Shown here: in pieces, positions 132 through 58,270 of the stretch
Numbering within the stretch: the first letter of the stretch is position 1
How the letters are laid out: each line of letters opens with the position of its first letter
Source: an uncultured virus (IMG/VR IMGVR_UViG_3300010157_000054)
Lineage: Duplodnaviria; Heunggongvirae; Uroviricota; Caudoviricetes
IMG/VR virus record: IMGVR_UViG_3300010157_000054
DNA: 64,000 nt
Strand: one strand, 5' to 3'
Translations under genes and position numbers: made by a program
Notes under the pieces: generated by a model
Databases searched by the model: none
What the model was told of the DNA's origin: nothing
The model's input: only the letters and a program-made list of their open reading frames with translations

Positions 132-2516
132 TTAGGCAAATCTATTGCCGTTTAACCCGTCTACACTGCTATTCAATTTTTCAGCATGGCTACCATTTTG
201 TTCTAGAGCCGCAAGCTGGGCTGCCGATATCTTATTTAAGTCGTTTAGTGCTTTTAGTATGTCACTATTGAATGATTCAGACGGCGTAGACTCTGATGGT
301 GTATTAGCTATTGGTGTTGCTGGCTCGTCATCATATTCATTACGAGCAGGTTCGGGAGTTTTAGGCGTTTGAGCCATAGAAGAAGTAGCATTTTTTAAAT
401 TACTAATCATATCCCTTGATGCTGCAGCAGCCGAATTATCAGCGGGCGGTATCATAGACTTGGCCATATTGGCTAATTGGCCTGGATCAGGTTGTTTAAT
501 ATTACCAATCATACTGGTAAGTTTCTTATCATCAAACCCACTTGGCATTTTTAGCTTGCTAAACGACGAGCTGATCTGCTTTTGCATATCACCCATCATA
601 GGAGTCATCTGCTTCTGCATATTATCCATCATAGGAGTCATCTGCTTCTGCATATTATCCATCATAGGAGTCATCTGCTTCTGCATATTATCCATCATAG
701 GGGTCATTTGCTTTTGCATATTTTCCATCATTGGAGTCATTTGCTTCTGAATGTCTCCAAACATCTTACTTGGATCAATTCCGCCTAGCATGTCTTTAGA
801 TGATACTGCTGGCATTTTTCCAGCAGACGCTGATTTAAGAAAGTCAAGACCGCCAACACTTTCAAACTTTGTAGCATCGTCCGGTTGCAATACTTTTTCG
901 CCCTTGTGTAGTTGTGCCACAACATCTTTAGGTTCTGTTTTTTCTTTTATTTCGCCTTCTGTTCCTGTATCCCGTTTTGGATACAGTGTTGGCACCCGTG
1001 GAGTATTTTCAGTTTGTATTTGTCCTAATGGTTTTTGTCCAGTATCTGGGTTGCCAGCAATTTCTCCAGAGGTATATCTGCCGCCTCCAATTTTTCCAGT
1101 TACTTCATTTAACTTAGCGGCAAAGCTATCTAAATTAGTAATAACTTTTCCAATAGTTTTAACTTCAAGATTAATTGCTTCGTCCCTAACCCGAGTATTT
1201 GCTTGATTACCAGCGGCTAATGCTTCGTCGCCCGCTCGCCTATTGCCGTTAGCGTCAACACCAGCTATGGCTCTATTTGTTTGTTCTTTACTATAGTCTG
1301 TTACCTGTCTAGGATCACCTGACATGCCTTGTCGTTGAAGATCGATTGATTGCGCTTTTTCTTTTTGTAGATTAGGCAGTCTTTCTTTCATCAGTTCTAA
1401 CATTGCTCCGTTAGTACCAGTTTGTCCACCTCGGCGTTCAACTTCTGCCATTTGCGTAAATTCTTTTGAACGCATTAAGGTGTTGACTTCAATCTTTGCT
1501 GCCTCAAGACGCATTTCTGCTGCTTTTTTCTCTTCTGCTGATCCGCCACGTTCTGTTACATTTTTTAAATTTCTAACAGCATCGCTAAACTCAACACCCT
1601 GTGATCCTAGAGCACCTTGAGTCATCGTTGCTTTGTCGCCGGTTACACCCATATCAGATGATGCTTCAAGGGCAAGATTCTGTAATGCTGGACCAAGACC
1701 AACTAGTTGCGGCATGAGATCACTCAGTGCTTCATTTTGTGCTTGATCACCTTCTAAACGCATTAGCTGCATTTGAAGGCTTTCGTTCATGACACGATTT
1801 TGCTTGTTGATTATGTCTGTGCTTATACCTGTTTCCTGACTTTGACGAATAGTGCTTTCCGTCATTTTCTCAAGAGATCGTATTGCGGCAGCTTTTGCCT
1901 TGGTATCATTTAGATCTATGTTACCGTTTTGAGTAATCCAAGTATTGGTATAGGTAGCAAGCTGTTCTGATGATAGGCCAAATGTTGATTGTAATTGTTT
2001 GGCAATATCTGTCTTTTTAAAGTCGTCTTGGAAGCTGGTTAGCTTCTTCATTGCTTCGCCGCTTTGTCCGCTTAGACCAAGCGTGTTTTTAGCCATGTCT
2101 TCTTGCTGTTTTGCAAACTGTTCTTGTGACAATCCACTTCGAGCACGAGTTTTTTCCATGTCTAGTAGTCCGCCAGCAAAAGCAGTTCCGGCGCTGAGTT
2201 GCTTTTGATAACTGTCAACTGAATTCGTCACAGCTCCAGAAACTGCGCCAAAAGCCGCCATCGCAGTATTAGCACCTATTGGCAATTTTCCTAGTGCCGT
2301 GCCAACTAGACCAACGGCAGTGGCAGTGGCTGAACTTGAACTGCCAAGTTTGCCAACACCTGTAATAGCTTCACCAAGGGATTTATCCCAACCAGCTGTA
2401 AAGCCAAATGTACCACCTGCGGCCGCAGGAGTGCTAGCAGGGGTATTAGTGCGAGACCCGCCTGCTTTCTGCAGCTCAATTAGTTCAGCTAATAACTCTT
2501 CAGTAGTCTTGGCCAT
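132..2516 (-). CDS. Tape-measure-like tail protein (794 aa)
   Basis: Long helical Ala/Gln/Lys-rich protein with a Gly/Ala-rich hydrophobic N-terminal segment and an LHKGEKVL motif; late-type promoter; adjacent to a baseplate hub gene. Confidence 0.6.
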   Translation of the reverse strand: MAKTTEELLAELIELQKAGGSRTNTPASTPAAAGGTFGFTAGWDKSLGEAITGVGKLGSSSSATATAVGLVGTALGKLPIGANTAMAAFGAVSGAVTNSVDSYQKQLSAGTAFAGGLLDMEKTRARSGLSQEQFAKQQEDMAKNTLGLSGQSGEAMKKLTSFQDDFKKTDIAKQLQSTFGLSSEQLATYTNTWITQNGNIDLNDTKAKAAAIRSLEKMTESTIRQSQETGISTDIINKQNRVMNESLQMQLMRLEGDQAQNEALSDLMPQLVGLGPALQNLALEASSDMGVTGDKATMTQGALGSQGVEFSDAVRNLKNVTERGGSAEEKKAAEMRLEAAKIEVNTLMRSKEFTQMAEVERRGGQTGTNGAMLELMKERLPNLQKEKAQSIDLQRQGMSGDPRQVTDYSKEQTNRAIAGVDANGNRRAGDEALAAGNQANTRVRDEAINLEVKTIGKVITNLDSFAAKLNEVTGKIGGGRYTSGEIAGNPDTGQKPLGQIQTENTPRVPTLYPKRDTGTEGEIKEKTEPKDVVAQLHKGEKVLQPDDATKFESVGGLDFLKSASAGKMPAVSSKDMLGGIDPSKMFGDIQKQMTPMMENMQKQMTPMMDNMQKQMTPMMDNMQKQMTPMMDNMQKQMTPMMGDMQKQISSSFSKLKMPSGFDDKKLTSMIGNIKQPDPGQLANMAKSMIPPADNSAAAASRDMISNLKNATSSMAQTPKTPEPARNEYDDEPATPIANTPSESTPSESFNSDILKALNDLNKISAAQLAALEQNGSHAEKLNSSVDGLNGNRFA
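574..755. repeat. 33-bp coding tandem repeat, about 5.5 copies (MQKQMTPMMDN)
   Basis: Unit atctgcttctgcatattatccatcataggagtc recurs at 574, 607, 640, 673, 706 and partially 739. Confidence 0.95.
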
Positions 2517-2580: not shown

Positions 2581-3408
2581 ATGGCCAATAATCCCTTACA
2601 GAAGTTTTTTCGTCAACCAAAAATCTTTATTAATTTACCCAGTAAAGGTCAGTACAACAACCCTGGTGAAATTACCGGCGATGTTACCAAGTTAGCAGTA
2701 TACGGTATGACTGGTATGGACGAAATTCTTATAAAAACACCTGATGCGTTAGTCACTGGCGAAAGCACTGTTAAAGTTATTGAAAGCTGTTGCCCGTCAA
2801 TTACCAACGGGTGGGCAGTTAGCAATTTAGATTTAGAATTAATACTAGCGGCTATACGTATTGCTACCTATACCAACATTATCACCGTTGGACATACTTG
2901 TGAGCATTGTCAAACAGAAAATGAATATGAACTTGAACTTTCAAAAATAATTGATTACTATAATCACATTACCTTTGACAATCATGCTGTGTTAAAAGAT
3001 GTAGTTGTAAAATTAAGACCGTTATGCTATAAAGAAGTTACAGAATTTAGTCAACGTAATTTTGAATTACGACAAAAATTACAAGCGGCAGCTACTATTG
3101 AAAATGATGTTGAAAAATCTAAAGAAATGTCAATATTATTTGAAGCATACGGCTTGTTACAAGTAGAAGTATATTCAGCTAATATCACTGCTATCGAAGT
3201 TGGAACCACGGTGGTCAATGAACGAGCATTTATTAATGAATGGTTGGCTAACACTGAAAAATCCACGTTTGACCAAATCAAAGTTCACATTGACAAAAAT
3301 ACACAACTGTGGGAAACTCCACCGCAAATGGCCCAATGTGAAAGTTGTGGCAAGGAAAACACAATTCGTGTGGCACTAGACCATTCAAATTTTTTCGCGA
3401 CAGCCTAA
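2581..3408 (+). CDS. Baseplate hub assembly protein, T4 gp26-like
   Basis: LPSKG N-terminal motif, MTGMDEILIK, two CxxC pairs (CEHC, CESC), C-terminal FF. Confidence 0.7.
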   Translation: MANNPLQKFFRQPKIFINLPSKGQYNNPGEITGDVTKLAVYGMTGMDEILIKTPDALVTGESTVKVIESCCPSITNGWAVSNLDLELILAAIRIATYTNIITVGHTCEHCQTENEYELELSKIIDYYNHITFDNHAVLKDVVVKLRPLCYKEVTEFSQRNFELRQKLQAAATIENDVEKSKEMSILFEAYGLLQVEVYSANITAIEVGTTVVNERAFINEWLANTEKSTFDQIKVHIDKNTQLWETPPQMAQCESCGKENTIRVALDHSNFFATA

Positions 3409-3629
3409 TTAGATTATCCACCCAGGAAATTGAAGAGTATCTAGTTAGGCTTGATAAAGAAGCAATAAACTTTAAAGAAGAGTTGTTTAGAATTAGTTGG
3501 TATATGCGGGGTGGCGTTAGTATTAATGATCTAATGCACACCTATAGCTATGAAGACCGCACACTAATGTACAAAATTATTTCAGATAACATGGAATTGT
3601 CTAAAATAATGCAACAACCTTTTGTTTAA
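3396..3629 (+). CDS. gp51-like small hub/tail chaperone domain, probably expressed as a -1 frameshift extension of the gp26-like gene
   Basis: Open -1 frame RDSLIRLSTQEIEEY...WYMRGGVSINDLMH...QQPFV begins at slippery AAATTTTTTC (3387-3396). An independent start at ATG 3504 is an alternative. Confidence 0.6.
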   Translation, partial: RDSLIRLSTQEIEEYLVRLDKEAINFKEELFRISWYMRGGVSINDLMHTYSYEDRTLMYKIISDNMELSKIMQQPFV

Positions 3630-4657
3630 TTAATGCCCTTAAACATTGGATTGCCTTTATACGTTGAAGTGCTAGGCACTTCTGATTGATAAGGTGAGGT
3701 GTTTGTACTGGCCGGTGTTTCTGGTTTAGCTGTTGACGAAGCATCTCTATCTGCTGCCGCTCCAGTATCGCTTTCTGGTTTGGGTTCAGAAGGATTGCCA
3801 GCAAGGTCGTTGGCTTTCTTTTTGGCCATATCAATCAGTTCAGCAACTCCGTCGTATGCTATTTTTCCAACGTTGTCCATCATACCGCCCGCAAACATAT
3901 CAGACCAAAACGACCTAGCTTCTTTGGTGCTTAATGCTGTAATAAGTGCAGCACGAGCGGCTGAACTCATTGAGCCCATACTGCCACCAATCTTATTTGC
4001 CAGCGGCGAAGAACTGCCTCTAAGCATTGCTCCCATAGCGCCCCATCCAGTACTTTGTTTCAGTACAGAAAATACCACAGTTGATGCGGCAATTTGAAAT
4101 ACCAATGTTGATTTTAAATGGGCAACACCGGCGTCGTATTGCTCTTGTGACATGCCGTTTTTTAATTGCTCATCAAAATACGCAATACCTTGATTGTAAT
4201 CCTGAACCATATTATAAATGCCAAAAACAGAAATAGCTTTAGAGACTAATCCCACTACCGGAATTTTACGTATTAATGAGGTTGCTGTGGTAGCGGCGGT
4301 TTGAGCACCTGGCGGAACAGGTGATCCTGATGGTAGCTTAGGCGGAACTTTAGTTGAAAGTCTTTCAGCATGATATTGTTTAAGAACTTTGGCCATGAAG
4401 TTGGGATCTTTAGCATATATTTCTGCAGCACGGGGACCGTATATCTTTTCAACTTGAGCGGCTGTGGGTGCAGCTCCACGTAGGGTATTACGGATAAGCT
4501 GACTATTTTTTGACATCATATCAACTAGATCGCCACGGGCACCAGTTTGTGCTAGCCATTTAGCTCCGTTAGCAACACCTTTACCTGCTAGCTTTAATAA
4601 ATCAACAGCTGCAGCTTCTTGAACTGTGTTCTCACTGATAATGTCGTAAATCTTCAT
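3626..4657 (-). CDS. Hypothetical late protein (343 aa), possible virion internal protein
   Basis: GAGG SD and GATAAATA promoter upstream; Ala/Gly-rich; N-terminus MKIYDIISE. Confidence 0.6.
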   Translation of the reverse strand: MKIYDIISENTVQEAAAVDLLKLAGKGVANGAKWLAQTGARGDLVDMMSKNSQLIRNTLRGAAPTAAQVEKIYGPRAAEIYAKDPNFMAKVLKQYHAERLSTKVPPKLPSGSPVPPGAQTAATTATSLIRKIPVVGLVSKAISVFGIYNMVQDYNQGIAYFDEQLKNGMSQEQYDAGVAHLKSTLVFQIAASTVVFSVLKQSTGWGAMGAMLRGSSSPLANKIGGSMGSMSSAARAALITALSTKEARSFWSDMFAGGMMDNVGKIAYDGVAELIDMAKKKANDLAGNPSEPKPESDTGAAADRDASSTAKPETPASTNTSPYQSEVPSTSTYKGNPMFKGIN

Positions 4658-4676
4658 TTGTATATCCTCTATGTGA

Positions 4677-4684
4677 TATTTATC
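4677..4684 (-). promoter_or_regulatory. Late promoter GATAAATA
   Basis: 19 nt upstream of ATG 4657. Confidence 0.65.
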
Positions 4685-4689
4685 AACTG

Positions 4690-5165
4690 TATTAAGAAGA
4701 ACTAACGTTCTTCTGTGTTATCGCTTGCGCTCTAACACATGTTGTTTCTCTTTGCAAAAACTATTAACTACGAAGTAGTTTAAATATTATCTAGATTGTT
4801 CAGTCACACTTTGCCCTGGCGGGCAAAAAATGAACATTATCTGAGTTGACCAGTTCACTTAACGTTACAGCATTACAGTGGCGGTTGTCCGGTACCACGA
4901 GCTGAGTCTTTATACAACGGCGGGTCTAACAGCATACGTTAACATGCCAATAGCCGTGGGTATTTCTCCCTCTTTTAGCCTTGTTTAAAATTTCTCTTAT
5001 AAATCAAACGGATTGTATGTAGGCATATTCCATCGTGGTCCTGTAAAGGATACTGATTTACGTCTCTGCTGCCACTCAGAATACCCTGCCGTCACACATC
5101 AGAACGGATTCGGGGCACAATATCGGTCGCCTGTGCGGGCTTATTTGGCAGTTAAACAGCCTGAA
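4690..5165 (-). ncRNA. Candidate large structured non-coding RNA (family not recognised)
   Basis: By far the longest intergenic gap in a gene-dense window; many nested helices, a long-range closing stem and a 6-bp pseudoknot seen by eye (see findings). Confidence 0.6.
4696..4713 (-). terminator. Possible intrinsic terminator hairpin GAAGAAC-GUUA-GUUCUUC
   Basis: Perfect 7-bp stem followed by UUAAU at the 3' end of the gp55-gp47-gp46-nuclease transcription unit; U-tract is weak. Confidence 0.4.
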
Positions 5166-5168
5166 TTA

Positions 5169-5594
5169 TTAGCCTTTGAGTATATGTGAACCATGTACAC
5201 GAACAGAAATCTGGCCGTTATAATAGTCTTTTGATTCTAGAACTTTGTGGGTAAATTGTTCTCTGGCCTCGATGTAAGAGCATTGCGCCTTGCTTGTGCA
5301 GTAATATAGGACTTCCCGAGTGAAGTTTTCTTTGCCTAATTTCAATACGTCAGCATTTAATTCCAGATTTGAACCGTAATAATCACGCCAATCTGAATCA
5401 ACTTTTGATCGTATTTTCTTTTTTTTCTTAGTCCCGTTCTTGAGCTTGACCACCTTGTAGGATGTTTTAGCGAACTTGGCTAATTTTTTGCCTATATATT
5501 TGCGTCCAGAGATGACATTTGTTATCAAGTACACGAAACCCACACACTCTTCGGGGAGTGTTTCAATGATTTCATTTTGATAAGTCCATGACAT
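5169..5594 (-). CDS. Small stand-alone GIY-YIG (Seg-like) endonuclease, 141 aa
   Basis: GFVYLITN...RKYIGKK motifs, YYGS, conserved Glu (YIEARE) and YYN; Lys-rich insert KNGTKKKKKIRSK; no C-terminal DNA-binding domain. Confidence 0.85.
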   Translation of the reverse strand: MSWTYQNEIIETLPEECVGFVYLITNVISGRKYIGKKLAKFAKTSYKVVKLKNGTKKKKKIRSKVDSDWRDYYGSNLELNADVLKLGKENFTREVLYYCTSKAQCSYIEAREQFTHKVLESKDYYNGQISVRVHGSHILKG

Positions 5595-5597
5595 GCA

Positions 5598-5864
5598 CTA
5601 ATTAGTGTTGTCAGATGTGCCTTTGTGTTGATTCTGGTTTGCCTTGCGTTTTGCTTTTGCCTGTTTCATATCTTCATTTTTCCACTCTCGCCACTCTTGT
5701 ACTTTTACACGACGAGCAGAGCAGATGCGCCTAATCTCACTTAACCACCATCGAACATCCATACCTGCTCGCTTGGTGTCCTCGTTGAGCCATTTTTGAT
5801 TTGCCTTAAAATATTCGCGAAAAGCTGACATGAGTTCATCATGTAGCTGTTCGTCTTTGTCCAT
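5598..5864 (-). CDS. Small basic helical hypothetical protein (88 aa)
   Basis: ORF coupled to the gp46 stop codon; Arg/Lys-rich C-terminal half. Confidence 0.65.
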   Translation of the reverse strand: MDKDEQLHDELMSAFREYFKANQKWLNEDTKRAGMDVRWWLSEIRRICSARRVKVQEWREWKNEDMKQAKAKRKANQNQHKGTSDNTN

Positions 5865-7642
5865 TACTCAGTAACCTCAAGATCATTGGCATAGCTGGTA
5901 AAGCCGTTTTCTTTAATCACACGTAGCACATTGTTTACACGACCAATAAGTTCATCTTTGTGACTGATTAAGAACACATTCTTTTTGCGTTCACGTGACG
6001 TTTTTTTCAGTATGCTTAATGCGCCTTCTACACCGCTAGCATCAAGTCCGTTGTCAATAAGTTCGTCTACAAACAGTAAATTAATCTGTTGATATAAACT
6101 TTCCCACACATCGCGGAACGCTAGAGATAACGATAAAATCAATCTAGTACGTTCGCCACGAGACAAGTTGTCAAAGTCAAGATCCTGGCCTAATTGTGTA
6201 ATCTCAACATTAAGATCGTTTAAGAAACTAACGGTATGCGGCAAGCCCATCTTGTCAAGATAGTAAGTCAAACGGTTGTTCAAGTACGCTAGATTCTGAT
6301 CAATAATTTTCTTACGAATAAACGAATCTTTTGATGTTAACAACTTGAGCAAGAACTCTTGATGGTCCTTTAGGGTGCTCAATGTGTTAATACTATCCCA
6401 ATTAATTTCTTGTAGAGCAGTATCAGTAAGTTCATCAATTTGTTCTTGATACGGGTCTGACTCACCTGCTTTGATCTGTAACTGTGTTTCTAAAGTTTTC
6501 AAATTATTCTGATGCTTTAGAGCCTGTTCAACAGAGTCGTAGTATGTGTCCGGCCGGACTGTTTGCTCACCTAGCGCAGTAATTTCTTTATTAATCTTAG
6601 CTAGGTCTAGTGTAACTTTATCAAAGTATTTTTGTGCGTCATCCGAGTGAGTCGTAGCCTCAGCAGACATTTCTTCATGTTTATGATCACGGAGATCTTG
6701 TTCACAAGCGTGGCACTTTTTGTCTTTCAACTTAGCAAGCTCGCTTGCGTACTTTTTTACGCTTCGCTCCGCTTGCGCTATCGCGCTGTCTAAAGTTGCC
6801 CGCTCCTTATTGAGACTCTTGAGCTTGGACGTGCGCTCTTCGTACACTTTTAGTTCAGCATGTTTAGAAAGTTCAGTGTCAATATCAACACCTTCTAATT
6901 CAATAATAGCACGACCAATTTTTTCTAATTCGTTTTCGTGCTGAGTATTCCATGCGCTTTGTCTAGTCAATAATCCGTCAATACTTACCTGAATTTTTTC
7001 ATTACTTTTCTTTGCGGCTTCTAAATCTGCGTTCTTTTGATAGATGTCATCTTTAGTAGTCTTAATCATTTCTTTAAGTGTTTCTGCCTTTTCGGATAGC
7101 AACGTAACGCCTAATAATTGTTCAATAATAACCCGCTGGTCGTTAGCCCGCATACTAAGAAACGGCTCGGTGTAGGTGTTAAGGGCTACAATATGTTTGA
7201 ACATATCATGCGACATTTCTAATAACTCATCAAGATCTTTTTGTGTTTCACGCATGTCGCCTTGTGCGTCATCAGATTCGTCAGTCTCTTGCTCTTGATC
7301 ATTTACATAGAACTTTAGTACGTTAGGTTTTCGTCCACGCTCAATACGATAGTTAGTGCCGTCCTTTTCAAACGTTAATGTAACTAACATGCCTTTATTG
7401 TTAATCTTGTTAATAAGATTATCTTTTTTAATGTTAGTTAATGCGTTACCAAACAAACTATAACTGAGCGCATTTACAATAGTAGTTTTACCTGTACCGT
7501 TTCTGCTACCGCTGTCATCTCCGCCTTGATCTAAGTTTTCACCTAGCACAAGTGTTAGATTTTCTTGCGCAAAATTTACAGCCTGGGTTTGATTACCCAC
7601 ACTCATGAAGTTTTTTACTGTTAATTCTTTAATTTTTATCAT
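5864..7642 (-). CDS. gp46: Recombination endonuclease ATPase subunit (gp46/SbcC/Rad50-like)
   Basis: Walker A NGTGKTT, coiled coil with CHAC zinc hook, LSRGE signature, Walker B LFVDE, ISH. Confidence 0.95.
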   Translation of the reverse strand: MIKIKELTVKNFMSVGNQTQAVNFAQENLTLVLGENLDQGGDDSGSRNGTGKTTIVNALSYSLFGNALTNIKKDNLINKINNKGMLVTLTFEKDGTNYRIERGRKPNVLKFYVNDQEQETDESDDAQGDMRETQKDLDELLEMSHDMFKHIVALNTYTEPFLSMRANDQRVIIEQLLGVTLLSEKAETLKEMIKTTKDDIYQKNADLEAAKKSNEKIQVSIDGLLTRQSAWNTQHENELEKIGRAIIELEGVDIDTELSKHAELKVYEERTSKLKSLNKERATLDSAIAQAERSVKKYASELAKLKDKKCHACEQDLRDHKHEEMSAEATTHSDDAQKYFDKVTLDLAKINKEITALGEQTVRPDTYYDSVEQALKHQNNLKTLETQLQIKAGESDPYQEQIDELTDTALQEINWDSINTLSTLKDHQEFLLKLLTSKDSFIRKKIIDQNLAYLNNRLTYYLDKMGLPHTVSFLNDLNVEITQLGQDLDFDNLSRGERTRLILSLSLAFRDVWESLYQQINLLFVDELIDNGLDASGVEGALSILKKTSRERKKNVFLISHKDELIGRVNNVLRVIKENGFTSYANDLEVTE

Positions 7643-14537: not shown

Positions 14538-14980
14538 TGAGTTCAAACGGAAATTTATACACTAAAATAGCATTGCCAGCTGCCAATCGTGCCGAAGATA
14601 TTCATCCTAAGATGTACAAGGGATTTAGTACGCTAAGTGCTGATACAGAAAATTATAGTTTATACGACTTATCTTTGATACAGCAAGATTTGTTAAATCA
14701 TTTTAATGTTCGTCAAGGCGAGCGATTAATGAATCCTGCGTTTGGCACAATTATCTGGGACTTATTATTTGAACCACTAACTGAAGACCTCAAAGGATTA
14801 ATTTTAGAAAACGTAAATCAGATTATCAATTATGATCCTCGAGTTAAAGCTGACAACGTTATTGTTACATCCTATGAAAGCGGAATACAAATTGAATGCT
14901 TTTTAACTTACCTGCCGTATAACATCAGCCAGAGTCTACAACTACGTTTTGACCAGGCAAACGGCCTGTTGGCAGCATAA
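14537..14980 (+). CDS. gp25: Baseplate wedge subunit gp25-like
   Basis: GERLMNPAFGTIIWDLLFEP and YDPRV motifs. Confidence 0.9.
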   Translation: MSSNGNLYTKIALPAANRAEDIHPKMYKGFSTLSADTENYSLYDLSLIQQDLLNHFNVRQGERLMNPAFGTIIWDLLFEPLTEDLKGLILENVNQIINYDPRVKADNVIVTSYESGIQIECFLTYLPYNISQSLQLRFDQANGLLAA

Positions 14981-18000: not shown

Positions 18001-18486
18001 AAGTCAATTAGTGACGAAATTGTATATCATCCTGTAAGTTATAAAATTTTATTTGGCGCAACGGCTGATGAAGATGTTCAAGCAAGTTTTAAAATTGTAA
18101 AAAATGCTGGGCAAGTACTGACCGACAATGATGTTAAAGCTCGTGTTATCACAGCAATGAATCAATTTTTTGCTTTAGAAAATTGGGAATTTGGAGACAC
18201 TTTCTATTTTACTGAGCTAGCAACATATATCGTAAATCAACTTGCCCCGGACATTAGTAATTTTGTCATTGTGCCTAGACAATCTGGTTTAAACTTTGGC
18301 AGCTTATTTGAAATTAAGTCAGCAACTGATCAAATTTTTATTAACGGAGCAACAGTTAACGATATTGAGATTATCTCCGGTATAACATCAAGCGCCATTA
18401 AATCAATAAGCGGCACAACAGTATCATCGACAGCGACTTCTCAACAAACAATTACAAGTTCAACATACGGATCAACAAATGGCTGA
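15028..18486 (+). CDS. gp6: Baseplate wedge subunit gp6-like (1152 aa)
   Basis: DFENLR...YNDYIESS, ENFLELAERRESVLRLARMLSY, FSDGIFGNLP, QNRMITGEDY motifs. Confidence 0.85.
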   Translation: MSSTDRQNRLLVAEDWKKVYQSFRNADFQSYDFENLRRTMIDYIRQNYPEDYNDYIESSEYLALIDLIAFMGQSIAFRVDLNARENFLELAERRESVLRLARMLSYNAKRNVAASGVLKFSSVQTTQNVIDSNGRNLSGQVIAWNDASNDNWYDQFIKIMNAAMAPTQQFGSPSDKADVYGIPTEQYRFNAANNDVPVYAFTKSVGGRNMNFEITSTTFTGQNYIYEEPPSVGNKMACIYRDDGRGPSSRGSGFFLNFTQGTLNQGSFTITQPSSTESVDIDSTNINNNDVWLYKLNQAGIETEKWSKVSSFEGNNIIYNSLNKKIRNIYGVVTRAGDAISLTFSDGIFGNLPLGIFRVYYRISNGLAYTINTQDIRSVTINIPYYSSSNQQETLTISLSLATSVSNADVSETSDSIKANAPQTYYTQNRMITGEDYNISPLSASTQVAKVKAVNRTSSGISRYFDLVDPTGKYSSTNLFATDGIIYNEKYKSQTRFSYANKTDIEGVIYNNVFDILTRKNLRNFYYSNFNNFITSSLNISWFNRTTDTGMSSGYIGATDGTPYKVGSYTSTDLKYFTSGSLIKFIPPAGYYFNTNNNNSLVLQTVPASPGTSAYLWAEVISVVDDGTAVGTGTLSTGFGPLMLNRVVPTDATITQILPKWRTVIDSTVITTMIELIFANKPFGLRYSSVTQTWQIVFESNLDIVSQFSLGKQGDVSNKQQDASWLLLFTTDNEYYTITSREEQYIFESNQQIRFYFDSSNKIYDSRSNSVVKDNINILSVNTQPGVTSPFTRDQVWDVVSEFIGLDGYIDTKKLIVSFADSDDNNVVDDPELFMNIVDPLTNPTTKYILQEKYLISQGQEDYRYITNTDNKVIVLPTDPNAYGSYVDGQYFYFIDTDTVKKLNASTGKLTTSLDYKVFVGRDNLKFQYTHSADYESRVDPGSSNIMDVFVLTTGYDTAFRQWLNGANITKPLAPSSDELYNTVAPSLNLIKSISDEIVYHPVSYKILFGATADEDVQASFKIVKNAGQVLTDNDVKARVITAMNQFFALENWEFGDTFYFTELATYIVNQLAPDISNFVIVPRQSGLNFGSLFEIKSATDQIFINGATVNDIEIISGITSSAIKSISGTTVSSTATSQQTITSSTYGSTNG

Positions 18487-21400
18487 TAGCATTAATCCAA
18501 ATAAAAATAAAGTTTCTAGTTTTCTTCCAAGATTTTATAGATCGGATTCAAATAAGAAATTTACACAGGCTACCCTTGATCAATTAGTACAGCCCGGGAC
18601 AGTTGATAAACTTAACGGTTTTGTTGGAAGAAAAAATGCTAAAGCAAGTACCGGTAAAGATATCTTTATTAAAGAGATTAGCGACCAACGGCAAAATTAT
18701 CAATTAGAACCAGGAATGGTTATTAAAGATGCGTTAGATAATGTAACATTTTTTAAAGACTATATTGACTATATTAATCAACTTGATGTATTCGGTGGCA
18801 ATGTTAAGAATCATGCCCGTTTAAATAAGCAAGAATTTTATTCATGGGATCCTCATATTGACTGGGATAAGTTTGTTAACTTTCAAAATTATTACTGGTT
18901 GCCATACGGCCCCGATGTAATCGCCATAGCCGGCCAGCAACAAAAAATTGAAAGTACATATACTGTTACTGTTGAAACAGAAGGTAATAGTTTTGAATAT
19001 GTGTTTACTCCTAACGGGTTAACTCGAAATCCAACAATTAAATTATATAAAGGGCAAACTTATAAATTTGAAATTAATAGTCCCGGAAATCCGTTTAGTA
19101 TTAAAACTGTTAGATCATTAGGCACATTAGACAGATATAAAACATTTGGATTAGATGGTGTTGCGGTTGAAAACGGTACAATTACCTTTACAGTCCCAAC
19201 AGATGCCCCGGACGTATTATATTATGTGAGTGAATCAGATATTGATCTCGGCGGAGTATTCCAAATATTTTCAATAAATGAAAATACAAAAATTGATGTT
19301 GAACAAGAAATCATTGGTAAAAAGAATTACTCCCTAGCTAACGGCACTGCCCTTAGCAACGGAATGAAAGTAAAATTTATCGGCGGCGTAATGCCTTTAT
19401 CATACGCTTCTGGTGAATATTATGTCGAAGGCGTAGGTACTGCTATTATTTTAATTAACGCATCAGAGCTGGCACTGATTAGCGCATACACTCAGTCTGA
19501 ATCAATTTTATTTGATTCGACGCCGTTCGATAATATGCCGTTTAGTGATGCTACAGCATTTGCTGGTACTCCTGATTACATTGCGATCAATAGGGCTAGT
19601 CTAGATAAGAATCCATGGTCTCGTTATAATAGATGGTTTCATATTGATGTGGTTAATTCAAGTGCTGCATTTAATAATAAAATTCCCAGTCTTGATCAGA
19701 ATGCTCGAGCAGTTCGACCAATTATTGAATTTGAACCGGGACTAAAATTATTTAATTTTGGACTTCAGTCGGTTGCTGATATCGATTTGATCGATACGTA
19801 TACCACTGATGTATTTTCTACAATTGAAGGGTCGTTAGGGTATAACGTTGACGGAATACCGTTGGTTCAAGGCCAACGAGTATTGTTTACTGCTGACAGT
19901 GATGGGTTTGTAAATAATAAAATTTATAAAGTTGAGTTTATTGATGTATTGCATCTCAATACAGGTAGTCGACAAATACATCTTGTTTTAGAAACTGAAC
20001 CAGCGTTACATAATGTTGTATTAGTTAAACAAGGTACATCGAATGTTGGTAAATCATATTGGTTTGACGGAAGTACCTGGATAGCCGGCCAACAAAAAAC
20101 TATTTTAAATCAACCACCGTTGTTTGATATTGTTGATGATAACATTGTTAGTTATGGTGATACTAATGCGTACGAAGGTTCTACTTTTAAAGGAACTAAA
20201 TTATTTTCATATAAGATTGGCACTGGCGCAGCCGATGGTAAATTAGGATTTCCGTTAACCTATAAGAATATTAGTAACATTGGCGATATTGTTTTTAATT
20301 TTAATATTTTAACAGACACATTTAGGTATAAAGATTTAGCGAATGTCATTGATAAAAATATTAACGTGGGATATCTTACCTTAATATCGCCTGAAACAAA
20401 AGCTATCAAATACGCCAACGGCTGGAAAACTTCCTTAGCAACACATAATCAAGCAGCCATCAGGATTTATAAAAATTCAAATTTAACAAACAATTTTGAA
20501 ATTGATATATTTGATAACAAGGACGATTTAACAGACTTAGTAGTACGTTTATATGTTAACGGTCGCCGCCTTGATAAATCATTATGGACGATAGTAACAG
20601 GACCAGTTTATAAGAAAATAGTACTAACAACTGACATATCTATAGACGATGTGCTGACTATTAAGACATTTGCTAGACAACCAATCAACACTAAGGGTTA
20701 CTACGAAACCCCGATTAATTTACAAAATAATCCATTAAATAATAATCTTGCTGATTTTACATTGGGCGAAGTTATTGATCATGTAAGCTCTATAGTTGAT
20801 AATGTAGAAGCATTTGAAGGAAATTACCCAGGCGCAGGTAACCTTAGAGATTTAGGCGATATTACACCTTACGGCACCAAGTTTGTTCAACACAGCGGTC
20901 CAATGGGACTAGCGTTATATCATATTACTAATCAAGAAAATAATATTATTCGCGCAATCGAAAATGCTAAAAATGATTATAATAAATTCAAAAGGAATTT
21001 TATATCAATCATTGATTCTTTAGAAGTATATTCTACAGATGTAGTAACACAAGTTAACTTGATTTTACAAGCAATTAATAAAGACAAGCCTGCTAGTGTG
21101 GCATATTATTTTAGTGATATGCTAGGTTACAGTGCTAATCAATACAATGAGTATCCGGTAATTGATTATAGAATACAATCATATCCGTTAGTATCTACAT
21201 TCAGCCTAACTAACTTATCAAATCAAGCAGTTTATATATACTTGAACGGAACACAGCTAGTATACAAAAAAGACTATACGTTTGACGGTCAAGGATTTGT
21301 AGTTATTAGTGCTACACTACATAATGACGACACTATTGGTATTTACGAATACGAAAATACTGACGGATGCTTTATTCCACAAACCCCTACTAAATTAGGA

Positions 21401-24400
21401 ATCTGGCCAAGGTACGAGCCTAAAATCTATCTTGATACTAGTTTAGTAACACCGCGCACGATGATACAGGGACATGATGGTAGCCAAGTACTGGCCTATG
21501 GTGATTATCGTGACGATTTAATATTAGAATTAGAAAAAAGAATTTTTAATAATGTAAAAGTTGAGTATGACGCTAGCATTTTTGATATCAACGATTTTCT
21601 ACCAAGTTATGTTAGAACCACTGAATATGACCTAACAGAATTTAACGAAGTGTTATCAACCCAATTTTATAAGTGGACTAGATTAATTGATAGAGATTTT
21701 ACCAAACCATTAAGCTACGACAGAGAGAACAGTCTTACTTATAATTACCAAGGGCATACTGCGATTGACGGAAGGTCAGTTCCGGGATACTGGAGAGGTA
21801 TATATCGTTGGATGCTAGACACTGACCGCCCTAATCTATGCCCCTGGGAAAGTTTAGGATTTACGATCCAGCCAGCATGGTGGGAGACCGTATACGGCCC
21901 GGCCCCTTACACCCGAGATAATTTAGTACTTTGGCAAGATTTAAGTCAAGGACTAGTAAAAGAACCAGGTAAGCCAGTAGTAATCTTAGAAAAATATGTT
22001 AGACCTTTCTTGGCTAATAGTATTCCTGTAGACGAAAACGGTAACATCTTAGGACCAATACTGTCAAATCTAGTTAACGGTCCGAATACTGTATCAATTA
22101 GTAATGATTTTGTTTTTGGAGATGTTAGTCCGATAGAAGCGGCATGGCGTAGAGGTAGCTACTATCCGTTTAGCTTTTTAATAACTGCCATGTTAACTGC
22201 TCCGGCAAAAACTTTTGGTTTACTATTGGATCGTTCAAGAGTTATTAGAAATTTAACCGGACAGCTAGTGTATAAAGATACTGGACTACGTATTCGACCA
22301 ACCGACGTGGTACTGCCTAGTATATATTCTAGTACAACTAGAGTACAGACCGCAGGTGTAATCAACTATATTATTGATTATGTCCTTAGCGATAATTTAA
22401 GATCTTACACCGACTACTCGTATAATTTAAAGCATCTTAATATGCAGCTAAGTTATCGATTGGGTGCGTTTACTAGTAAAGAAAAATTTAACTTGCTGTT
22501 AGACAGTAAAACCCCTTCAAGCTCGGGTAGTGTTTTTGTCCCGCAAGAAGACTATAATATTATTTTAAATGTTAGTAGTCCTGTTAAAAAAATTACGTAC
22601 AGCGGCGTCATTGTTACTAAATTACCAGACGGCTTTGAGGTCAAAGGCTACAGTCAAATACAACCATATTTTAAATATTTTCCATATATAAAAAATGGAC
22701 CAACAATTAATATTGGAGGTATCTCAGAAAGTTTTTCAACGTGGACTGCTGGGGAACAATATGCTGTTGGCAAGGTTGTAAAATATAATAATCGTTACTA
22801 CAGAGTAAAGGTTTTTCATGTATCGAGCAGTGTTTTTAATGAAGCATACGTTCAACCATTAGGCAGCTTACCAATTATTGGCGGTCAGGAGGCTGTGTTT
22901 AGAACAGAATGGGATATCTCTGTAGAAATTACAGTACCATACGGCACAAAATTTAGAACTATTCAAGAAACTGTTGATTTTATTATTGGATACGGCGAAT
23001 GGTTAAAATCCCAAGGATTTATATTTGATGATTTTAATAATAACATTGCATTAATTACCAACTGGGAAACCAGTGCCAAAGAATTTTTATTCTGGACAAC
23101 ACAAAATTGGTCTTCAGGACAAGAAAAATGGGCTGAATGGACACCATTTACTACGACTGAATATCAAGAAATTATTCGTTATAATGGGGACTATTATCAA
23201 GCTATTCGCAAATCCGTATCAGAAAATTTATTCATAGAAGATGACTATGTAAAGCTAGACGGGTTAAGTACGGTTGGCAGCTCAGTAATATCATTAAGTC
23301 CGTCTGCTAGTAAAGTAACTTTTAGTATACCGTACTCAGTAGTAGACGATATTAAAAATCCGTTCCACGAATATGAAATTTTTAAAGTTGACGGATCGCC
23401 AATGCCGCCTCGACTAATTAATTCTTATAGAGAAGATAATGCTGTAAGTTATGCTTCTGTTACAACTGATGGTATTTTTGGCGCAACGTTTTTCTTAGTA
23501 CAAAAAGAACAAGTGGTATTAATAAACAATTCTACAATGTTTAATGACACAATCTATAATCCAGAAAGTGGTTATAGACAGGAGCGTATTAAAGTAGCCG
23601 GATATGTAAGTACAAACTGGTTTGGAGGATTTGATGTTCCTGGCTTTATCTTCGACCAAGCAAATATTCAAGTATGGTCCTCATGGACAGATTATGCGCT
23701 AGGCGACATCATTAAGTATAAAGAATTTTATTATAGCGCCAATCAATTTACACCGGGTACAGAAACCTTTATACCGAGTAACTGGATCAAATTAGATACC
23801 AAGCCGACTCCTCGATTAATACCTAACTGGACATATAAGGCTTCACAATTTGAAGACTTCTATAGCCTAGACAGCGACAATTTTGACATCGGCCAACAAC
23901 GGGCTGCACAGCATTTAATTGGGTACCAAAAGCGCCAATATCTTGAAAACATTATTAAAGATGATGTTAGTGAATACAAATTTTATCAAGGTATGATTAT
24001 TGAAAAAGGTACACAAAACGTTCTTAACAAATTGTTTGACGTATTAAGTGCCGAAGGGCAAGAAAGTATAGTATTTGACGAAGAATGGGCAGTGCGTGTT
24101 GGACAATACGGTGCCAGTGCTGCCTTTGAAAACATTGAATTTATATTACCGGAGAGCTTGTTTAAAAACAATCCTCAAGGTTTTGAACTGGCAAACAGTA
24201 CTGATACTGTATCGCAGGACTTTATTATTCGCCAAACACCAAATGATGTTTATTTAAAACCATTAGGTTATAATAATAATCCATGGCCTGTTGTTAAAAA
24301 CTACACTCCGTATTTAAGGACCCCTGGGTATGTTCGTCAACATGAAGTTACTGAGGTACTAATAACTCTTGACGATATTGTTAACAGTGACATTGATAAG

Positions 24401-27400
24401 ATTAATAACGGTGACTACATTTGGTGCGGGTTTGAAGGCCGTGAATGGAATGTATACAAGTATGTACCTTCTAATTTCACAGTATTAAATGTAACATATG
24501 ATCCCGGTAGCAGTGAATTATTTTTAGAAACTGACGCCCTTGTAAAATTACGACCTGGGGAATATATTGGTATTGAAGGCGACAAAAATCTCCGGGGCAT
24601 CGAACAAATCACATTTAAAGGATTTTATAAAGTTATTCGTTTAGAATTAAATGTAGTAGTACTGTCAGCATCTCTTAAGTCAGCTCCAAATTTTGCTCCT
24701 AATTTAATTATACCAGTATTTGTACTACAATCTCAACGGGTATCGAGTATTGACACGGCTGATTCTATAATTACATCTCAACCAACCAATGGCGACTTGT
24801 TATGGACTGACAATTCCGGTGACGGAAAATGGGCTACTTGGAAATTTAATAATGTATACAAATCTACACAGATTGCCGGTTACCTACCAACTAAGGGATT
24901 AGAATTTGGTCGAACTATTGCGGTAAACAAAGGCGGTAATTTATCAGCAATATCTTCAGGTAACGGCGATGTTTTAATTTATAGTAAATCGGTACCCGGC
25001 GTGCCTTGGTCTACAACTCAAAGAATTAGCAAACCGTTCACATCGTTAGGATTAGATATTTGGTCGTCTGAAGTATCCTATGCACAAGGTACTATTGTAT
25101 TTTATGTTAATGGATGGTATCAAGCTAATGACATTGTTCCAGCAAGGGTTACCCCACCGAGTAGCGTTGCCCATTGGACTAAAATTTACTTTTCAGATGT
25201 TGTAGCATTATCTCCAGACGGTACATGGCTTGCCGTTGGAAGTCCGTCGGCTAGTAATGTGTCAGTGTCAACCACAATATCTGAACTTATTACAGTTAAC
25301 AGATCCGGGACACCATCTGAATTGACCAATCAAGGGGTTGTATCTTTATACAAAAAAAATAATGCTGACTTATTTTCTTTGGTCGATACATTCACTAGTC
25401 CATCTTCAGTTGATAATGAAAAATTTGGATCAAATCTAGTTTTTGGTGATAATGTATTATTTGTTGGAGCGATTGGTCGAAATAACAATGCTGGTCGAGT
25501 TTATCAGTTAAACTACACAGCCGTACCCTATGCTACTGTTTTGTATAACCCAATCGGTAGTATTGATGCTACGATTAAAACAACAATACCTGTTGGTACC
25601 GTAGAAGTAGGCATGACAATTGTTGGCACTGGATTTACTAGCGGACAAAAAGTTAAACAAATTTTAAGTCCAACATTATATGTACTAACAGCACCCCCTG
25701 ACACGACCCCGTCGGGCCGCCTAAGTTTTGTAGTTACTCAATGGGTATATGATAACAACACTGGGATAGGCACTGGGGCGGCGCCCAATGATCAATTTGG
25801 TTATGCTATTAATGTTAGTGGAGATTCGTCTACCCTGGCAATCTCAGCGCCCGATGCGGAGTCGGTTCATGTCTATAAGAAAGTATCCGGAGTATATACA
25901 TTAGTTCAAACAGTAACCGGAACTGATTCACGATTTGGAGAAAGTATTTCTTTATCGGACACTGCCGAATATCTTGCGGTTTCGTCAATACTAGTCGATG
26001 ATAAAGAAATCGACCAAGGCGCAGTATTTGTTTATAAAAATATAAATGGATCTTTCATCACATATCAAAACCTTACTAATGTGATGCCAGAAGCCGCAGA
26101 ACATTTCGGAAGTAAAATATCATTCATGAATGACTATGGTAGTATTGTAGTGTATAGTACTGCTGCCGATACTTTTGTTCCGACTACTTTTGATACTGGC
26201 ACAACTACTTTTGATGATAAATTAACAAAAATTATAACTCGTCAGCTCAATAGCGGGCGTGTTGACATATACGATCGATACGCTACTAAATGGGTATTCA
26301 GTGAAAGTTTGCCAACAATTAATTCTGAGTATGATTTATACGGTGCCAGTGTAGTAGTTGGCGCTAACCATGTATTTGTTGGGGCTCCAAACGCGGTTGA
26401 TCGTACACTCCGTGCTGGTATTGTCTACGAATACAGCAAGCTAGCCAACACTTACAGTTGGTCAATCTTACATAAAGAAATTAATAAATTAGATTTAACA
26501 AAAATTAAATCTGCGTTTTTATACAATAAGAAAACAAACAAACTGCTTACATACTTAGATGTAATTGATCCAGTACAAGGAAAAATTCCAGGCGTTGCTG
26601 AACAGGAAATTAAATTTAAAACATTTTATGATCCGGCAGTTTATTGCTCGCCAATAGGAACTGCGATAGCTGATAAATCAGTTAACATTGACGACGGCAT
26701 GGCCTGGACCAAAGATCAAGTCGGCATGTTATGGTGGGATTTAAGATCAGCTAAATTTTTAGATAGTCATGATAACGATCCTGTTTACAGAAATAGTACA
26801 TGGAGTACTTTATTTCCCGGAGCATCAATTGATATATATGAATGGGTCGAGTCGACATTATTACCAGCCGCATGGAACGAACAAGCTGATACTGATGCTG
26901 GTATCACATTAGGAATCAGCGGCACCACACTATATGGTAATAATGTATATAGTTACGAAAAACGGTATGATAATGTAGGTAAAGTTACAAAATACAAATA
27001 TTATTATTGGGTAAAGAATAAAAAAACTATCCCAAACATTATCAATCGTAATATGTCTGCCCAAGACGTATCTAATTTAATATCTAATCCAAGAGGCGAG
27101 GGATATAAGTTTGTAGCATTGACCGGAACTAACTCTTTTAGTTTATTCAACATATCAAATTTATTAAAAGATACTGATGTTGTATTATCTGTACAATATT
27201 GGATCGCCGACCATATCGATCAAAACATACATAGTCAGTGGAAAATAATTAGTAGGAATAAAAATACTGTATTGCCAACAGCTATTGAAACAAAATGGTT
27301 TGACAGTTTATGTGGCAAAGATCAGCAGGGACGATTAGTTCCTGACAATAGCTTGCCTCCTAAATTACAATATGGTATTGAAAATAGACCTCGCCAAGGC

Positions 27401-55688: not shown

Positions 55689-56095
55689 TCTATTTGTGCT
55701 CTATTGTTACCAAGTCTTGTTACATTAACATAACCAGCAGTCCGATCTTTAGCTTCCATACCTTCACCTTGAATCATGGAACTATACAAATCTCGAAACC
55801 ACCGATCAACAATTTGTTCATCTGGATCACCGTCAAATCCGTAACCAGCTTGTTTCAATTGTACTATAAACAGGTCGTTCCAGTCAAGCTCAAAAAAGCC
55901 ATTTCTTGGATTGTCTTTATTAACTTTGGTGTCCAATACGCTAACCCAAGGCTCACCTCGAGCAGTAGCACGTTCTTTTGGTGCTAGTTTAGCAATACGT
56001 TCATCTTCTTTAGCCTGAGCAGTTTCTAACTGTGCTTGCTCTTTCTCGGCAAGAAGCTTGTCTATACCAAACATCTTTCTAATAAATTGTTTCAT
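55685..56095 (-). CDS. Hypothetical protein (136 aa)
   Basis: Start set at MKQFIRK coupled to the queE stop; GFFELDWN motif. Confidence 0.7.
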   Translation of the reverse strand: MKQFIRKMFGIDKLLAEKEQAQLETAQAKEDERIAKLAPKERATARGEPWVSVLDTKVNKDNPRNGFFELDWNDLFIVQLKQAGYGFDGDPDEQIVDRWFRDLYSSMIQGEGMEAKDRTAGYVNVTRLGNNRAQIE

Positions 56096-56949: not shown

Positions 56950-57277
56950 TTTTCTTCCTAAAATCTTCTACATCGTCTATTGCTAGTTTTAAAGTTTCTG
57001 CATAGTTTAAAGCACCTTGAGCTTTCAAACAAACAGTTGCTTGGGTATCAATATATCCTTTGGTAAGCAGAGTCCAGATATGATGCCATCGTGTTTGAGT
57101 CCAAAAGTTAGATCTAGTAGTAGTATAAATTGTTACAGTAACTCCAGTGTCTTCGGCCTCTACCCAAACATTATGGTCGCATTCGGAACTACCGCATTCG
57201 CATGTAACACGATAAACTTTTGAGTCTCCCCAATCGTTGTGTTTTAATATACCTTCTGCTGGCATTTGATAATTCAT
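56936..57277 (-). CDS. Hypothetical protein with CxC-x4-C-x-H motif (113 aa)
   Basis: ORF coupled to neighbours; CECGSSECDH. Confidence 0.65.
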   Translation of the reverse strand: MNYQMPAEGILKHNDWGDSKVYRVTCECGSSECDHNVWVEAEDTGVTVTIYTTTRSNFWTQTRWHHIWTLLTKGYIDTQATVCLKAQGALNYAETLKLAIDDVEDFRKKNVKN

Positions 57278-58236: not shown

Positions 58237-58264
58237 CTCCGATGTTAAGGCAGTGGATTGCCAT
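58237..58264 (-). promoter_or_regulatory. Candidate mini-pseudoknot 5' UTR element of folE
   Basis: GGCA-AUCCAC-UGCC hairpin whose loop UCC is complementary to the GGA of the SD. Confidence 0.4.
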
Positions 58265-58270
58265 ATGTGT

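Follow-up and report, generated by a model that had tools for sequence, protein, structure and literature searches.

A stretch of 64,000 nucleotides (nt) from an uncultured virus of the Caudoviricetes (IMG/VR record IMGVR_UViG_3300010157_000054), called the window throughout, holds on its minus strand, between the end of the gene for a small GIY-YIG nuclease and the start of the next gene at 4657, a gap of 511 nt without an open reading frame (ORF; 4658-5168), in which we found a member of the Polynucleobacter-1 RNA family (Rfam RF01718). We propose that this is a long-form member of the family, of ~460 nt (~5151 to 4695, minus strand) and with four pseudoknots, and that it is an autonomous, trans-acting structured RNA of mobile elements which presents two identical words to an outside partner; for both parts together we estimate a probability of about 0.5. 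New here are the extent of ~460 nt, three more pseudoknots, the wide spread among freshwater T4-like phages, a layout common to bacterial islands and the co-switching of the two words.

Identity of the RNA

Using cmscan on the whole window, we obtained a single match above the gathering threshold, to RF01718 at 4997-5141 on the minus strand (70.4 bits against a threshold of 37, E 6.5e-13), which spans the full model (positions 1-141 of 141). A permissive cmscan of 4500-5700 (E up to 10) returned nothing else significant, no known ribozyme family was matched there at E<=10, and ARAGORN found 0 tRNA or tmRNA genes. The preliminary description of this DNA had taken the gap for a large multi-domain structured RNA on the minus strand, with which RF01718 membership and covariation agree, and for a new one, a novelty that falls with the strong RF01718 match.

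The motif was published by Weinberg et al. 2010 (PMC2864571), whose table lists it as 'RNA? y, cis-reg? y, switch ?' with the taxa Burkholderiales and fresh water/estuary. In the Stockholm file of that paper, 11 of 16 rows extend over ~270-300 nt; its structure lines show the linker AAGGCUAA, a small and a long hairpin and nested helices around GGUACCGGACAACCGCC, and a separate pseudoknot line (SS_cons_1) pairs the loop of the long hairpin with a downstream strand (PMC2864571). The window RNA agrees helix by helix with the alignment in that file down to ~4857, and the long-form elements recorded there are those that had been described from the window as GGG/CCC, an ACGG/CCGU arm, CAGC/GCUG, GUGG/CCAC and a UUAACG/CGUUAA pseudoknot. 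The RNA thus belongs to no new class, given the RF01718 match and a middle domain and pseudoknot that are part of the alignment of 2010; the data indicate that the RF01718 model is the 5' third of the ~460-nt RNA. Literature searches (motif name, DUF6641, Polynucleobacter phage ncRNA, GIY-YIG with structured phage RNA) found no study of the Polynucleobacter-1 RNA besides the 2010 paper.

Relatives in freshwater phages

The RNA is present in at least 120 freshwater T4-like viral contigs, all from uncultured phages, which were matched in IMG/VR by a 26-letter pattern taken from its most conserved stretch. From these contigs we collected 101 distinct regions of 600 nt (median pairwise identity 65%, minimum 46%), which are the relatives referred to below. 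The intergenic stretch 4655-5153 is 91-99% identical to its closest relatives (L004 and others), and the coding flanks are ~43-96% identical to those of L004 per 100-nt block. Deposited phage genomes gave no real match by blastn, only matches of 25-35 nt at E ~6.

One relative (L008:2500-2560) has lost ~66 nt comprising the 3' strand of the main pseudoknot, the first repeat copy and the G+C-rich hairpin described below, with the rest of the RNA kept; the deletion junction sits at a short ACUG repeat.

Fold of the RNA

The elements of the RNA, from 5' to 3', are the following.

5146..5151, minus strand: leader strand CUGCCA, pairing with the P3 loop (5069-5074) as a pseudoknot, outside the Rfam model
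4997..5141, minus strand: 5' domain, equal to RF01718, with P1, P2, P3 and a multistem closed by 5059-5054/5006-5001
4857..4996, minus strand: middle domain, with linker AAGGCUAA, a hairpin at 4969-4958 and a long hairpin at 4955-4923
4942-4936/4865-4859 and 4918-4914/4888-4884, minus strand: pseudoknots of the middle domain
4904-4901/4871-4868 and 4898-4894/4882-4878, minus strand: helices of the middle domain
4833..4848, minus strand: repeat copy 1, CAACUCAGAUAAUGUU, whose variable letters match those of copy 2
4810..4827, minus strand: G+C-rich hairpin UUUGCCC-GCCA-GGGCAAA between the repeat copies
4783..4798, minus strand: repeat copy 2, CAAUCUAGAUAAUAUU, 50 nt after copy 1
4767..4779, minus strand: UUCG-capped hairpin, missing from some relatives
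4715..4738, minus strand: GAGCG-CAA-GCGA hairpin, made of a variable stem, tandem G-A/A-G and a G-C/C-G stem of two pairs, with a GNRA-like loop
4695..4714, minus strand: terminal 8-bp hairpin, the probable 3' end of the RNA, with no U-tract after it

Covariation was scored as mutual information with average-product correction on the 101 sequences and gave 58 seed pairs, from which 85 pairs in 17 helices were obtained. Canonical pairing reaches 95% in this set and drops to 31-43% once the 3' partners are shifted by 1-3 columns (slid control); 68 of the 85 pairs show at least two sequences changed on both sides. In a second test the middle domain was aligned in 42 sequences (43 were picked and L008 was dropped for its deletion there): over 36 pairs, the two pseudoknots included, 93.3% of the cells are paired and 29 of the 36 pairs have changed on both sides, while none of 500 shuffles scored as high on all five measures and the slid controls reached 35-49% paired.

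Most of the helices first proposed from the letters are borne out in this way, GCACA/UGUGC, CCGUU/GACGG, UCUG/CAGA and UAAAUCA/UGAUUUA by covariation in the 101 relatives, and GGG/CCC, the ACGG/CCGU arm with its hairpin, CAGC/GCUG and GUGG/CCAC by the same relatives together with the 42-sequence test. The proposed pseudoknot between UUAACG (4942-4937) and CGUUAA (4864-4859) stands as well, with 7 of 7 pairs changing on both sides and 95.9% of cells paired, and G-U pairs do favour the minus strand, as was said of them (5032-5009, for example, is UG in 66 sequences, which fits that strand only). Three proposed segments did not survive the covariation check. The closing helix UGUUUAA (5158-5152)/UUAAACA (4988-4982) is only 21-70% canonical in relatives, and the leader (5151-5146) has its partner in the loop at 5074-5069 instead; for UGUUCA/UGAACA the canonical share in relatives is 45-75%; and AGAU/AUCU is conserved, yet shows no change on both sides and is missing from the bacterial copies.

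Three pseudoknots beyond those annotated in the 2010 structure lines are supported by compensatory changes. The leader and the P3 loop switch together (5149-5071 is GC in 56 and AU in 30 of the 101 relatives, 5148-5072 GC in 81 and CG in 17), and in bacteria the two strands switch between CUACUG/CAGUAG and CUACCG/CGGUAG. The 5' strand pairs with the P1 loop (5140-5138/5131-5129; 5140-5129 is GC 71/AU 25), and in the middle domain 4918-4914 pairs with 4888-4884 (4916-4886 is UA 57/CG 44). Within P1-P3 and the multistem, compensatory pairs include 5134-5117 (AU 66/GC 33), 5106-5090 (UA 67/CG 18) and 5055-5005 (CG 67/AU 17/UA 13).

Conserved structure extends ~165 nt past the end of the 2010 alignment as given in its Stockholm file, to ~4695. 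In the G+C-rich hairpin the core C-G pairs are 99% canonical and variants such as AGCCC/GGGCU and CUCCCGG/CGGGAG occur, the MAFFT columns being partly out of register here. The UUCG hairpin has two compensatory pairs between the window and L004, and 4778-4768 is GC 19/AU 18/CG 15. In the GAGCG hairpin 4729-4724 is CG 83/UA 16 and 4734-4719 is UA 48/AU 19/CG 9, and in the terminal hairpin 6 of 8 pairs reach z values of 13.9-25.5, with 4711-4698 being UA 57/CG 26/AU 16.

Two words that switch together

The G+C-rich hairpin is flanked by the two 16-nt direct repeats, offset by 50 nt, which vary among relatives at corresponding positions and in the same direction. Positions 4842 and 4792 are GG in 53, AA in 46 and otherwise in 1 of 100 sequences, 4838 and 4788 are AA in 66 and GG in 33, and 4836 and 4786 are UU in 79, AA in 15 and GG in 4. 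Among close relatives there were 9 disjoint pairs with different letters at 4842, and in 9 of 9 the letters at 4792 differ in the same way; one of these pairs is 98% identical elsewhere. No complementary partner for the words was found within 300 nt on either side, by mutual information or by direct search (<=11 of 101 sequences at any place).

Other origins of this identity were considered. Gene conversion is unlikely, because fixed differences between the copies (CUC against UCU) sit 1-3 nt from the co-switching position, and haplotype blocks are unlikely because 4842 is linked to no other column (mutual information <=0.25 with every one). The word was also considered as a genome-wide promoter or operator, since the window has 7 copies of AGATAATRTT where 0.81 would be expected; this was rejected, the 5 copies outside the RNA sharing no flanks, three of them being in-frame Asp-Asn-Val/Ile codons and two lying antisense within ORFs. 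A translational bypass of the T4 gene 60 type, with matched AGA/GGA codons 50 nt apart, was rejected as well: a UGA stands four codons upstream in frame, and the bacterial words differ.

Copies in bacterial islands

A search of bacterial genomes with a 16-letter motif from the P3 loop gave 9 true copies among 120 genome loci, carried by Polynucleobacter, Comamonadaceae and one metagenome-assembled genome labelled Nitrospira. RF01718 scores 70-99 bits in 5 of 5 genomes tested, but of 151 genomes sampled from that bacterial family only 2 have it above its cut-off. No homologues of window proteins were found in the 5 bacterial loci searched. According to the gene order, the RNA is adjoined by a divergent DUF6641 gene in 6 of 6 loci tested and is followed, 600-1100 nt downstream on its own strand, by a tyrosine recombinase of 188-198 amino acids (aa) in 5 of the 6 loci with enough flank; this small recombinase matches only the catalytic half of XerA/XerC/XerD.

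The bacterial 3' hairpins were scored by descriptor search with shuffles; RNAalifold on a MAFFT alignment of the 3' hairpins returned 4 pairs only, that alignment being out of structural register. The layout of AACUC and 9 nt, a hairpin, and AAUCU and the same 9 nt (at least 7 of 9 identical) is found in all 8 bacterial loci and was equalled by only 1 of 1600 shuffles; the words of these loci are unlike the phage word (AGCGAAAG, AUCGAAAG, ACCAAAAG, AACAAAAG and GCAAAAU). A GAGYG...ARCGA hairpin occurs in 6 of the 8 loci and in 4 of 1600 shuffles. From the shared word layout and the GAGYG hairpin it follows that phage and bacterial copies have one architecture, and the ~460-nt layout is thus common to integrase-bearing islands of Polynucleobacter and Comamonadaceae that lack the phage genes of this locus.

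The recombinase and DUF6641 genes occur together in the same 8 of 151 genomes. In 8 further cassettes of this kind (L324-L331) the gap between them has no Rfam match at E<=0.1 and holds an ORF of 127-177 aa, so that the middle slot of the cassette carries either the RNA or an ORF of no known family; one of the 4 slot ORFs has a sub-threshold match to REP_ORF2-G2P (21.5 bits against a cut-off of 27.8). Two of these cassettes (L324 and L325) keep the GAGCG-hairpin region beside the recombinase gene, without RF01718. Extra copies of the words at island borders are at chance level only. A 5.7-kb contig that bears one bacterial copy is labelled with a coverage of 141.

A Comamonadaceae locus (L262, G005:C15) has two full RF01718 copies on one strand, 9 kb apart (5767-5902 and 14646-14783), each beside a DUF6641 gene, with the small recombinase at only one of them; they may be tandem islands.

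The adjoining nuclease

The gene upstream of the RNA in the window is the following.

5169..5594, minus strand: nuclease gene, 141 aa, GIY-YIG domain only, SegE-like (PF19835, phrog_447)

The protein matches PF19835 at E 2.1e-31 (residues 3-129 on profile positions 1-123 of 123) and phrog_447 at E 8.1e-36, and its GFVY and YIGKK motifs are nearly invariant among 61 distinct homologues. It had been described as a bare catalytic nuclease domain, which fits, as PF19835 covers residues 3-129 of 141; solved GIY-YIG structures gave no sequence match to it at E<=0.1. Also in keeping with the first description, the gap behind it on the same strand is the only long one without ORF in the window: in a frame scan, 4718-5168 is the longest stretch uncovered by any stop-to-stop frame of at least 80 codons, and the sole other such stretch (58245-58466) contains an ORF of 71 aa.

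Upstream ORFs could be called in 74 phage loci, the window counted and near-duplicates retained. A homologue of the window nuclease is directly upstream of the RNA in 67 of them by phmmer, and tblastn adds two in the same place (L043 and L078), giving 69 of 74; in L071 and L024 it lies further upstream behind an extra ORF, which gives 71 of 74 within 2.5 kb. Where the two are adjacent, the nuclease gene ends 231-288 nt before the conserved pattern, and three further phage contigs, found via another motif, show the order gp47-gp46-nuclease-RNA. No GIY-YIG nuclease is present within 2.5 kb of the RNA in L015, L019 and L076. In L019 a PDDEXK_15 nuclease (1721-2242, plus strand) occupies the GIY-YIG slot directly before the RNA, and in L015 an RNase H gene (749-1168, minus strand) lies ~400 nt upstream of it.

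The adjacency is not independent evidence of a partnership, because the gp46/gp26 synteny is conserved too: gp46 upstream is 49-96% identical, a gp26-like gene lies downstream, and the nuclease (56-100% identical) diverges in step. Homologues of the nuclease were found in 509 deposited phage records; none reaches 60% identity, and the annotation often reads 'NAD synthetase'. In Melnitz-3, ACP17, phiN3 and P-HM1 the next gene follows the nuclease at 0-148 nt or overlaps it (P-HM1), and RF01718 was not found in the complete record of any of the four, even at E<=1. The supposed partnership of RNA and nuclease is therefore not supported as an obligate system, since each occurs on its own: 3 of 74 phage loci and 5 bacterial loci have the RNA but not the nuclease, and all 4 of the 4 named phages have the nuclease but not the RNA. 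The nuclease is a neighbour and not an obligate partner, a conserved T4-like phage gene that works without the RNA elsewhere; the RNA may still have a looser link to domain-poor DNA enzymes, namely the PD-(D/E)xK nuclease of one phage and the catalytic-domain-only tyrosine recombinases of bacteria.

Two observations, from unrelated contexts, concern a QSregVF_b/ExoX-C-like segment near the RNA. In L071 a 72-aa ORF of this kind (1994-2212, plus strand) lies between nuclease and RNA, and a similar segment occurs in Polynucleobacter in an RNase_T-type exonuclease two genes from the RNA (L169:1121-1777, minus strand).

Transcription and the downstream gene

On the minus strand of 4400-6000 we found no sigma-70-like promoter and no intrinsic terminator. 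The following features lie behind the RNA.

4677..4684, minus strand: box GATAAATA, after the terminal hairpin and 20 nt before the start codon of the next gene, with which it goes, and not with the RNA
3626..4657, minus strand: downstream ORF of 343 aa, variable in relatives and not part of the RNA unit

The box resembles what we take to be the consensus of T4 late promoters. Where the next gene is co-directional, 28 of 38 loci have an ATAAATA at most 70 nt upstream of its start codon; where it is convergent, 1 of 31 does. The 343-aa protein has no Pfam or PHROG match and is 67-70% identical in relatives. The next ORF of at least 100 aa is convergent in 31 of 69 phage loci, which contradicts a role of the phage copies as leader, and the 83 nearest downstream ORFs (at least 60 aa) fall into 28 clusters, though several short minus-strand ORFs among the 83 may be spurious. 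In four freshwater RNA libraries, from four studies, there are contigs that match relatives of the RNA and of the nuclease gene; some of these contigs span the two, such as the one over 4996-5351 in X15.

What the RNA may do

As an autonomous module of mobile elements, the RNA would act in trans as a folded RNA and would most likely be the core of a ribonucleoprotein. In the phage, a leftward gp47-gp46-orf88-nuclease transcript would carry it as its tail, with the 8-bp terminal hairpin as the 3' end of the RNA; nothing like a promoter or terminator was found between RNA and nuclease gene. Two copies of one single-stranded word of 8-9 nt, one after AACUC and one after AAUCU, would then be offered to a partner outside the RNA.

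Several points weigh against this proposal. The contigs from RNA libraries show neither level, strand nor ends and may hold DNA, and a function of the folded single-stranded DNA would also be compatible with the sequence. Folding energy by itself speaks only modestly for a fold, with z = -2.32 for the minus and -0.94 for the plus strand. The list of 17 helices came from the same alignment that was used to score them, so that the slid control is the fairer measure. The 3' hairpins may be a separate module rather than part of one RNA, since the GAGCG-hairpin region survives beside a recombinase gene in L324 and L325 without RF01718. Finally, the nuclease is a very frequent neighbour, directly so in 69 of 74 loci and within 2.5 kb in 71, and this, together with the PDDEXK_15 gene in the same slot of L019, could mean a functional link beyond synteny.

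Such a link is the substance of another explanation, in which the RNA gives recognition or scaffolding to an adjoining small DNA enzyme without DNA-recognition domain (in phages the GIY-YIG or PD-(D/E)xK nuclease, in islands the catalytic-domain-only tyrosine recombinase), the words being recognition elements. It would account for the nuclease directly upstream in 69 of 74 loci, for the PDDEXK_15 gene of L019 and the RNase H gene of L015, and for the catalytic-half recombinase found behind the RNA, in the same orientation, in 5 of the 6 bacterial loci with enough flank, and the identity of the words could reflect the need of two recombining DNA sites for one shared core. We nevertheless hold it to be unlikely, as the nuclease does without RF01718 in Melnitz-3, ACP17, phiN3 and P-HM1, the RNA without any nuclease in L076 and the bacterial loci, and recombinase and DUF6641 without RF01718 in 8 further loci; the words are no more frequent at island borders than by chance, their other copies in the window are in-frame Asp-Asn codons or antisense inside genes, synteny confounds the phage adjacency, and recombinases of the size of FimB and FimE are not known to need an RNA. 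That the RNA is a programmable recognition module, whose two words pair with two DNA sites of one sequence and so direct or join the recombinase or nuclease, seems to us quite unlikely; in that case the words would be kept identical in the same way as crossover cores, which recombination requires to match. A cis-acting element of the 3' untranslated region, stabilising or processing the gp46-nuclease mRNA or tuning nuclease expression with no role of its own, would fit the start of the RNA ~17 nt past the nuclease stop codon, the lack of promoter- and terminator-like sites between gene and RNA and, weakly, the RNA-library contigs that bridge the nuclease ORF and the 5' domain. Nevertheless ~460 nt, four pseudoknots and near-invariant loops exceed the needs of a stabiliser, in the islands the RNA lies behind no gene and diverges from DUF6641, and it persists where the nuclease is replaced or absent, so that we regard such an element as improbable.

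A role in replication, as a pre-primer or origin RNA like ColE1 RNA II or as a folded single-strand DNA origin, agrees with carriers that are two kinds of mobile elements, with the block of DNA-metabolism genes around the phage copies (gp46/47, nucleases, RNase H in L015), with the sub-threshold REP_ORF2-G2P match of a slot ORF in the cassettes without RNA, and with the bacterial copy on the 5.7-kb contig of labelled coverage 141. We rate it as improbable too: the Rep match is under its cut-off and in 1 of 4 ORFs, primer RNAs are not known to carry multiple pseudoknots, and T4-type origins are not known to be structured RNAs under conservation. The RNA has the size, the multiple pseudoknots and the invariant joining regions that catalytic RNAs typically have, and the two words could be copies of one cleavage site in a ribozyme that cleaves or processes itself there, freeing the hairpin between them. 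But no ribozyme family was matched at E<=10, an internal guide complementary to the words was not found, and at the words the RNA-library contigs neither join nor stop, with the proviso that transcript ends are not visible in contigs; a ribozyme is decidedly unlikely. A cis-regulatory leader or riboswitch of the downstream gene would be in line with the entry 'cis-reg? y' in the 2010 table (PMC2864571) and with the recombinase gene that follows on the same strand in bacterial loci. It is very unlikely in view of the next ORF being convergent in 31 of 69 phage loci, of the 28 clusters into which the 83 nearest downstream ORFs (some possibly spurious) fall, and of the late-promoter-like box between the RNA and co-directional genes.

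For the trans-acting RNA that we propose, the co-switching words and the recurrent neighbourhood of small DNA enzymes make its function testable, and a phage-host pair is not needed for such experiments because cultured Polynucleobacter strains carry a copy of the RNA.

Other features of the window

The window belongs to a T4-like phage: it encodes gp46- and gp47-like nuclease subunits, a gp55-like late sigma factor and ThyX, as well as baseplate-type proteins (gp26-, gp53-, gp25- and gp9/10-like). Within the baseplate and tail-fibre block, a single ORF of 4707 aa (18479-32602, plus strand, 14 kb) has a C-terminal CBM_5_12 match. The gp26-like ORF (2581-3408, plus strand, PF12322) overlaps a 94-aa ORF (3345-3629), and a TTTTTTC run (3390-3396) stands right before the first stop. 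A protein of 794 aa (132-2516, minus strand), without family match above the cut-off, contains the peptide MQKQMTPMM(D/E/G)N(M) in tandem copies near the C-terminal third (DNA ~570-760); judged by its place, it may be a hub or tape-measure-like protein.

On the minus strand, a GTP cyclohydrolase I gene (57492-58229) adjoins a radical-SAM-like ORF (56095-56949, under the Pfam cut-off), and the pair (56095-58229) possibly belongs to a 7-deazaguanine DNA-modification pathway, in which case the phage DNA could be shielded from a nuclease that degrades host DNA.

Comparison with known systems

The RNA joins the large, ornate RNAs of bacteria and phages, and it is common to freshwater T4-like phages and to islands of Polynucleobacter and Comamonadaceae. 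The nearest comparison is the Polynucleobacter-1 motif itself, with which, going by its 2010 table, it shares the freshwater and Burkholderiales habitat. The Rfam model ends at 141 positions and the 2010 alignment in its Stockholm file at ~4857, whereas the conserved covarying structure found here reaches ~4695, and the phage contexts contradict the cis-regulation entered in the table.

A compact nuclease gene adjoining a structured RNA on the same strand recalls the omegaRNA/HEARO RNAs with IscB or TnpB, and in TnpB systems the RNA lies 3' of the ORF. Here, however, the nuclease is a single GIY-YIG domain and not of the RuvC/HNH kind, RNA and nuclease occur independently, and neither a variable terminal guide nor a hypervariable terminal segment was seen, the 3' end being a covarying hairpin and the variable words internal and duplicated. 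With the Seg-type homing endonucleases of T4 the nuclease shares the GIY-YIG domain (PF19835 is named after SegE), but it is without the C-terminal DNA-binding domain of the Seg proteins, and it is not sporadic: 71 of 74 loci have the gene, whose divergence keeps pace with that of gp46. T4 endonuclease II (DenA) is likewise a small, domain-only GIY-YIG enzyme.

The bridge RNA of IS110 elements is encoded beside the recombinase gene and has two internal recognition segments; the two words beside a small recombinase in the bacterial copies are reminiscent of it, a resemblance that is no more than a lead. The recombinase here is a tyrosine recombinase and not of the DEDD type, the words are identical, and no complementary DNA site was found. 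GOLLD, ROOL, OLE and raiA are RNAs of several hundred nt with many helices and pseudoknots, found on phages or mobile elements. The present RNA is like them in size, helices, pseudoknots and mobile carriers, insofar as these are their general properties, and differs from them in fold and host range, with no Rfam match to them at E<=10 in 4500-5700.

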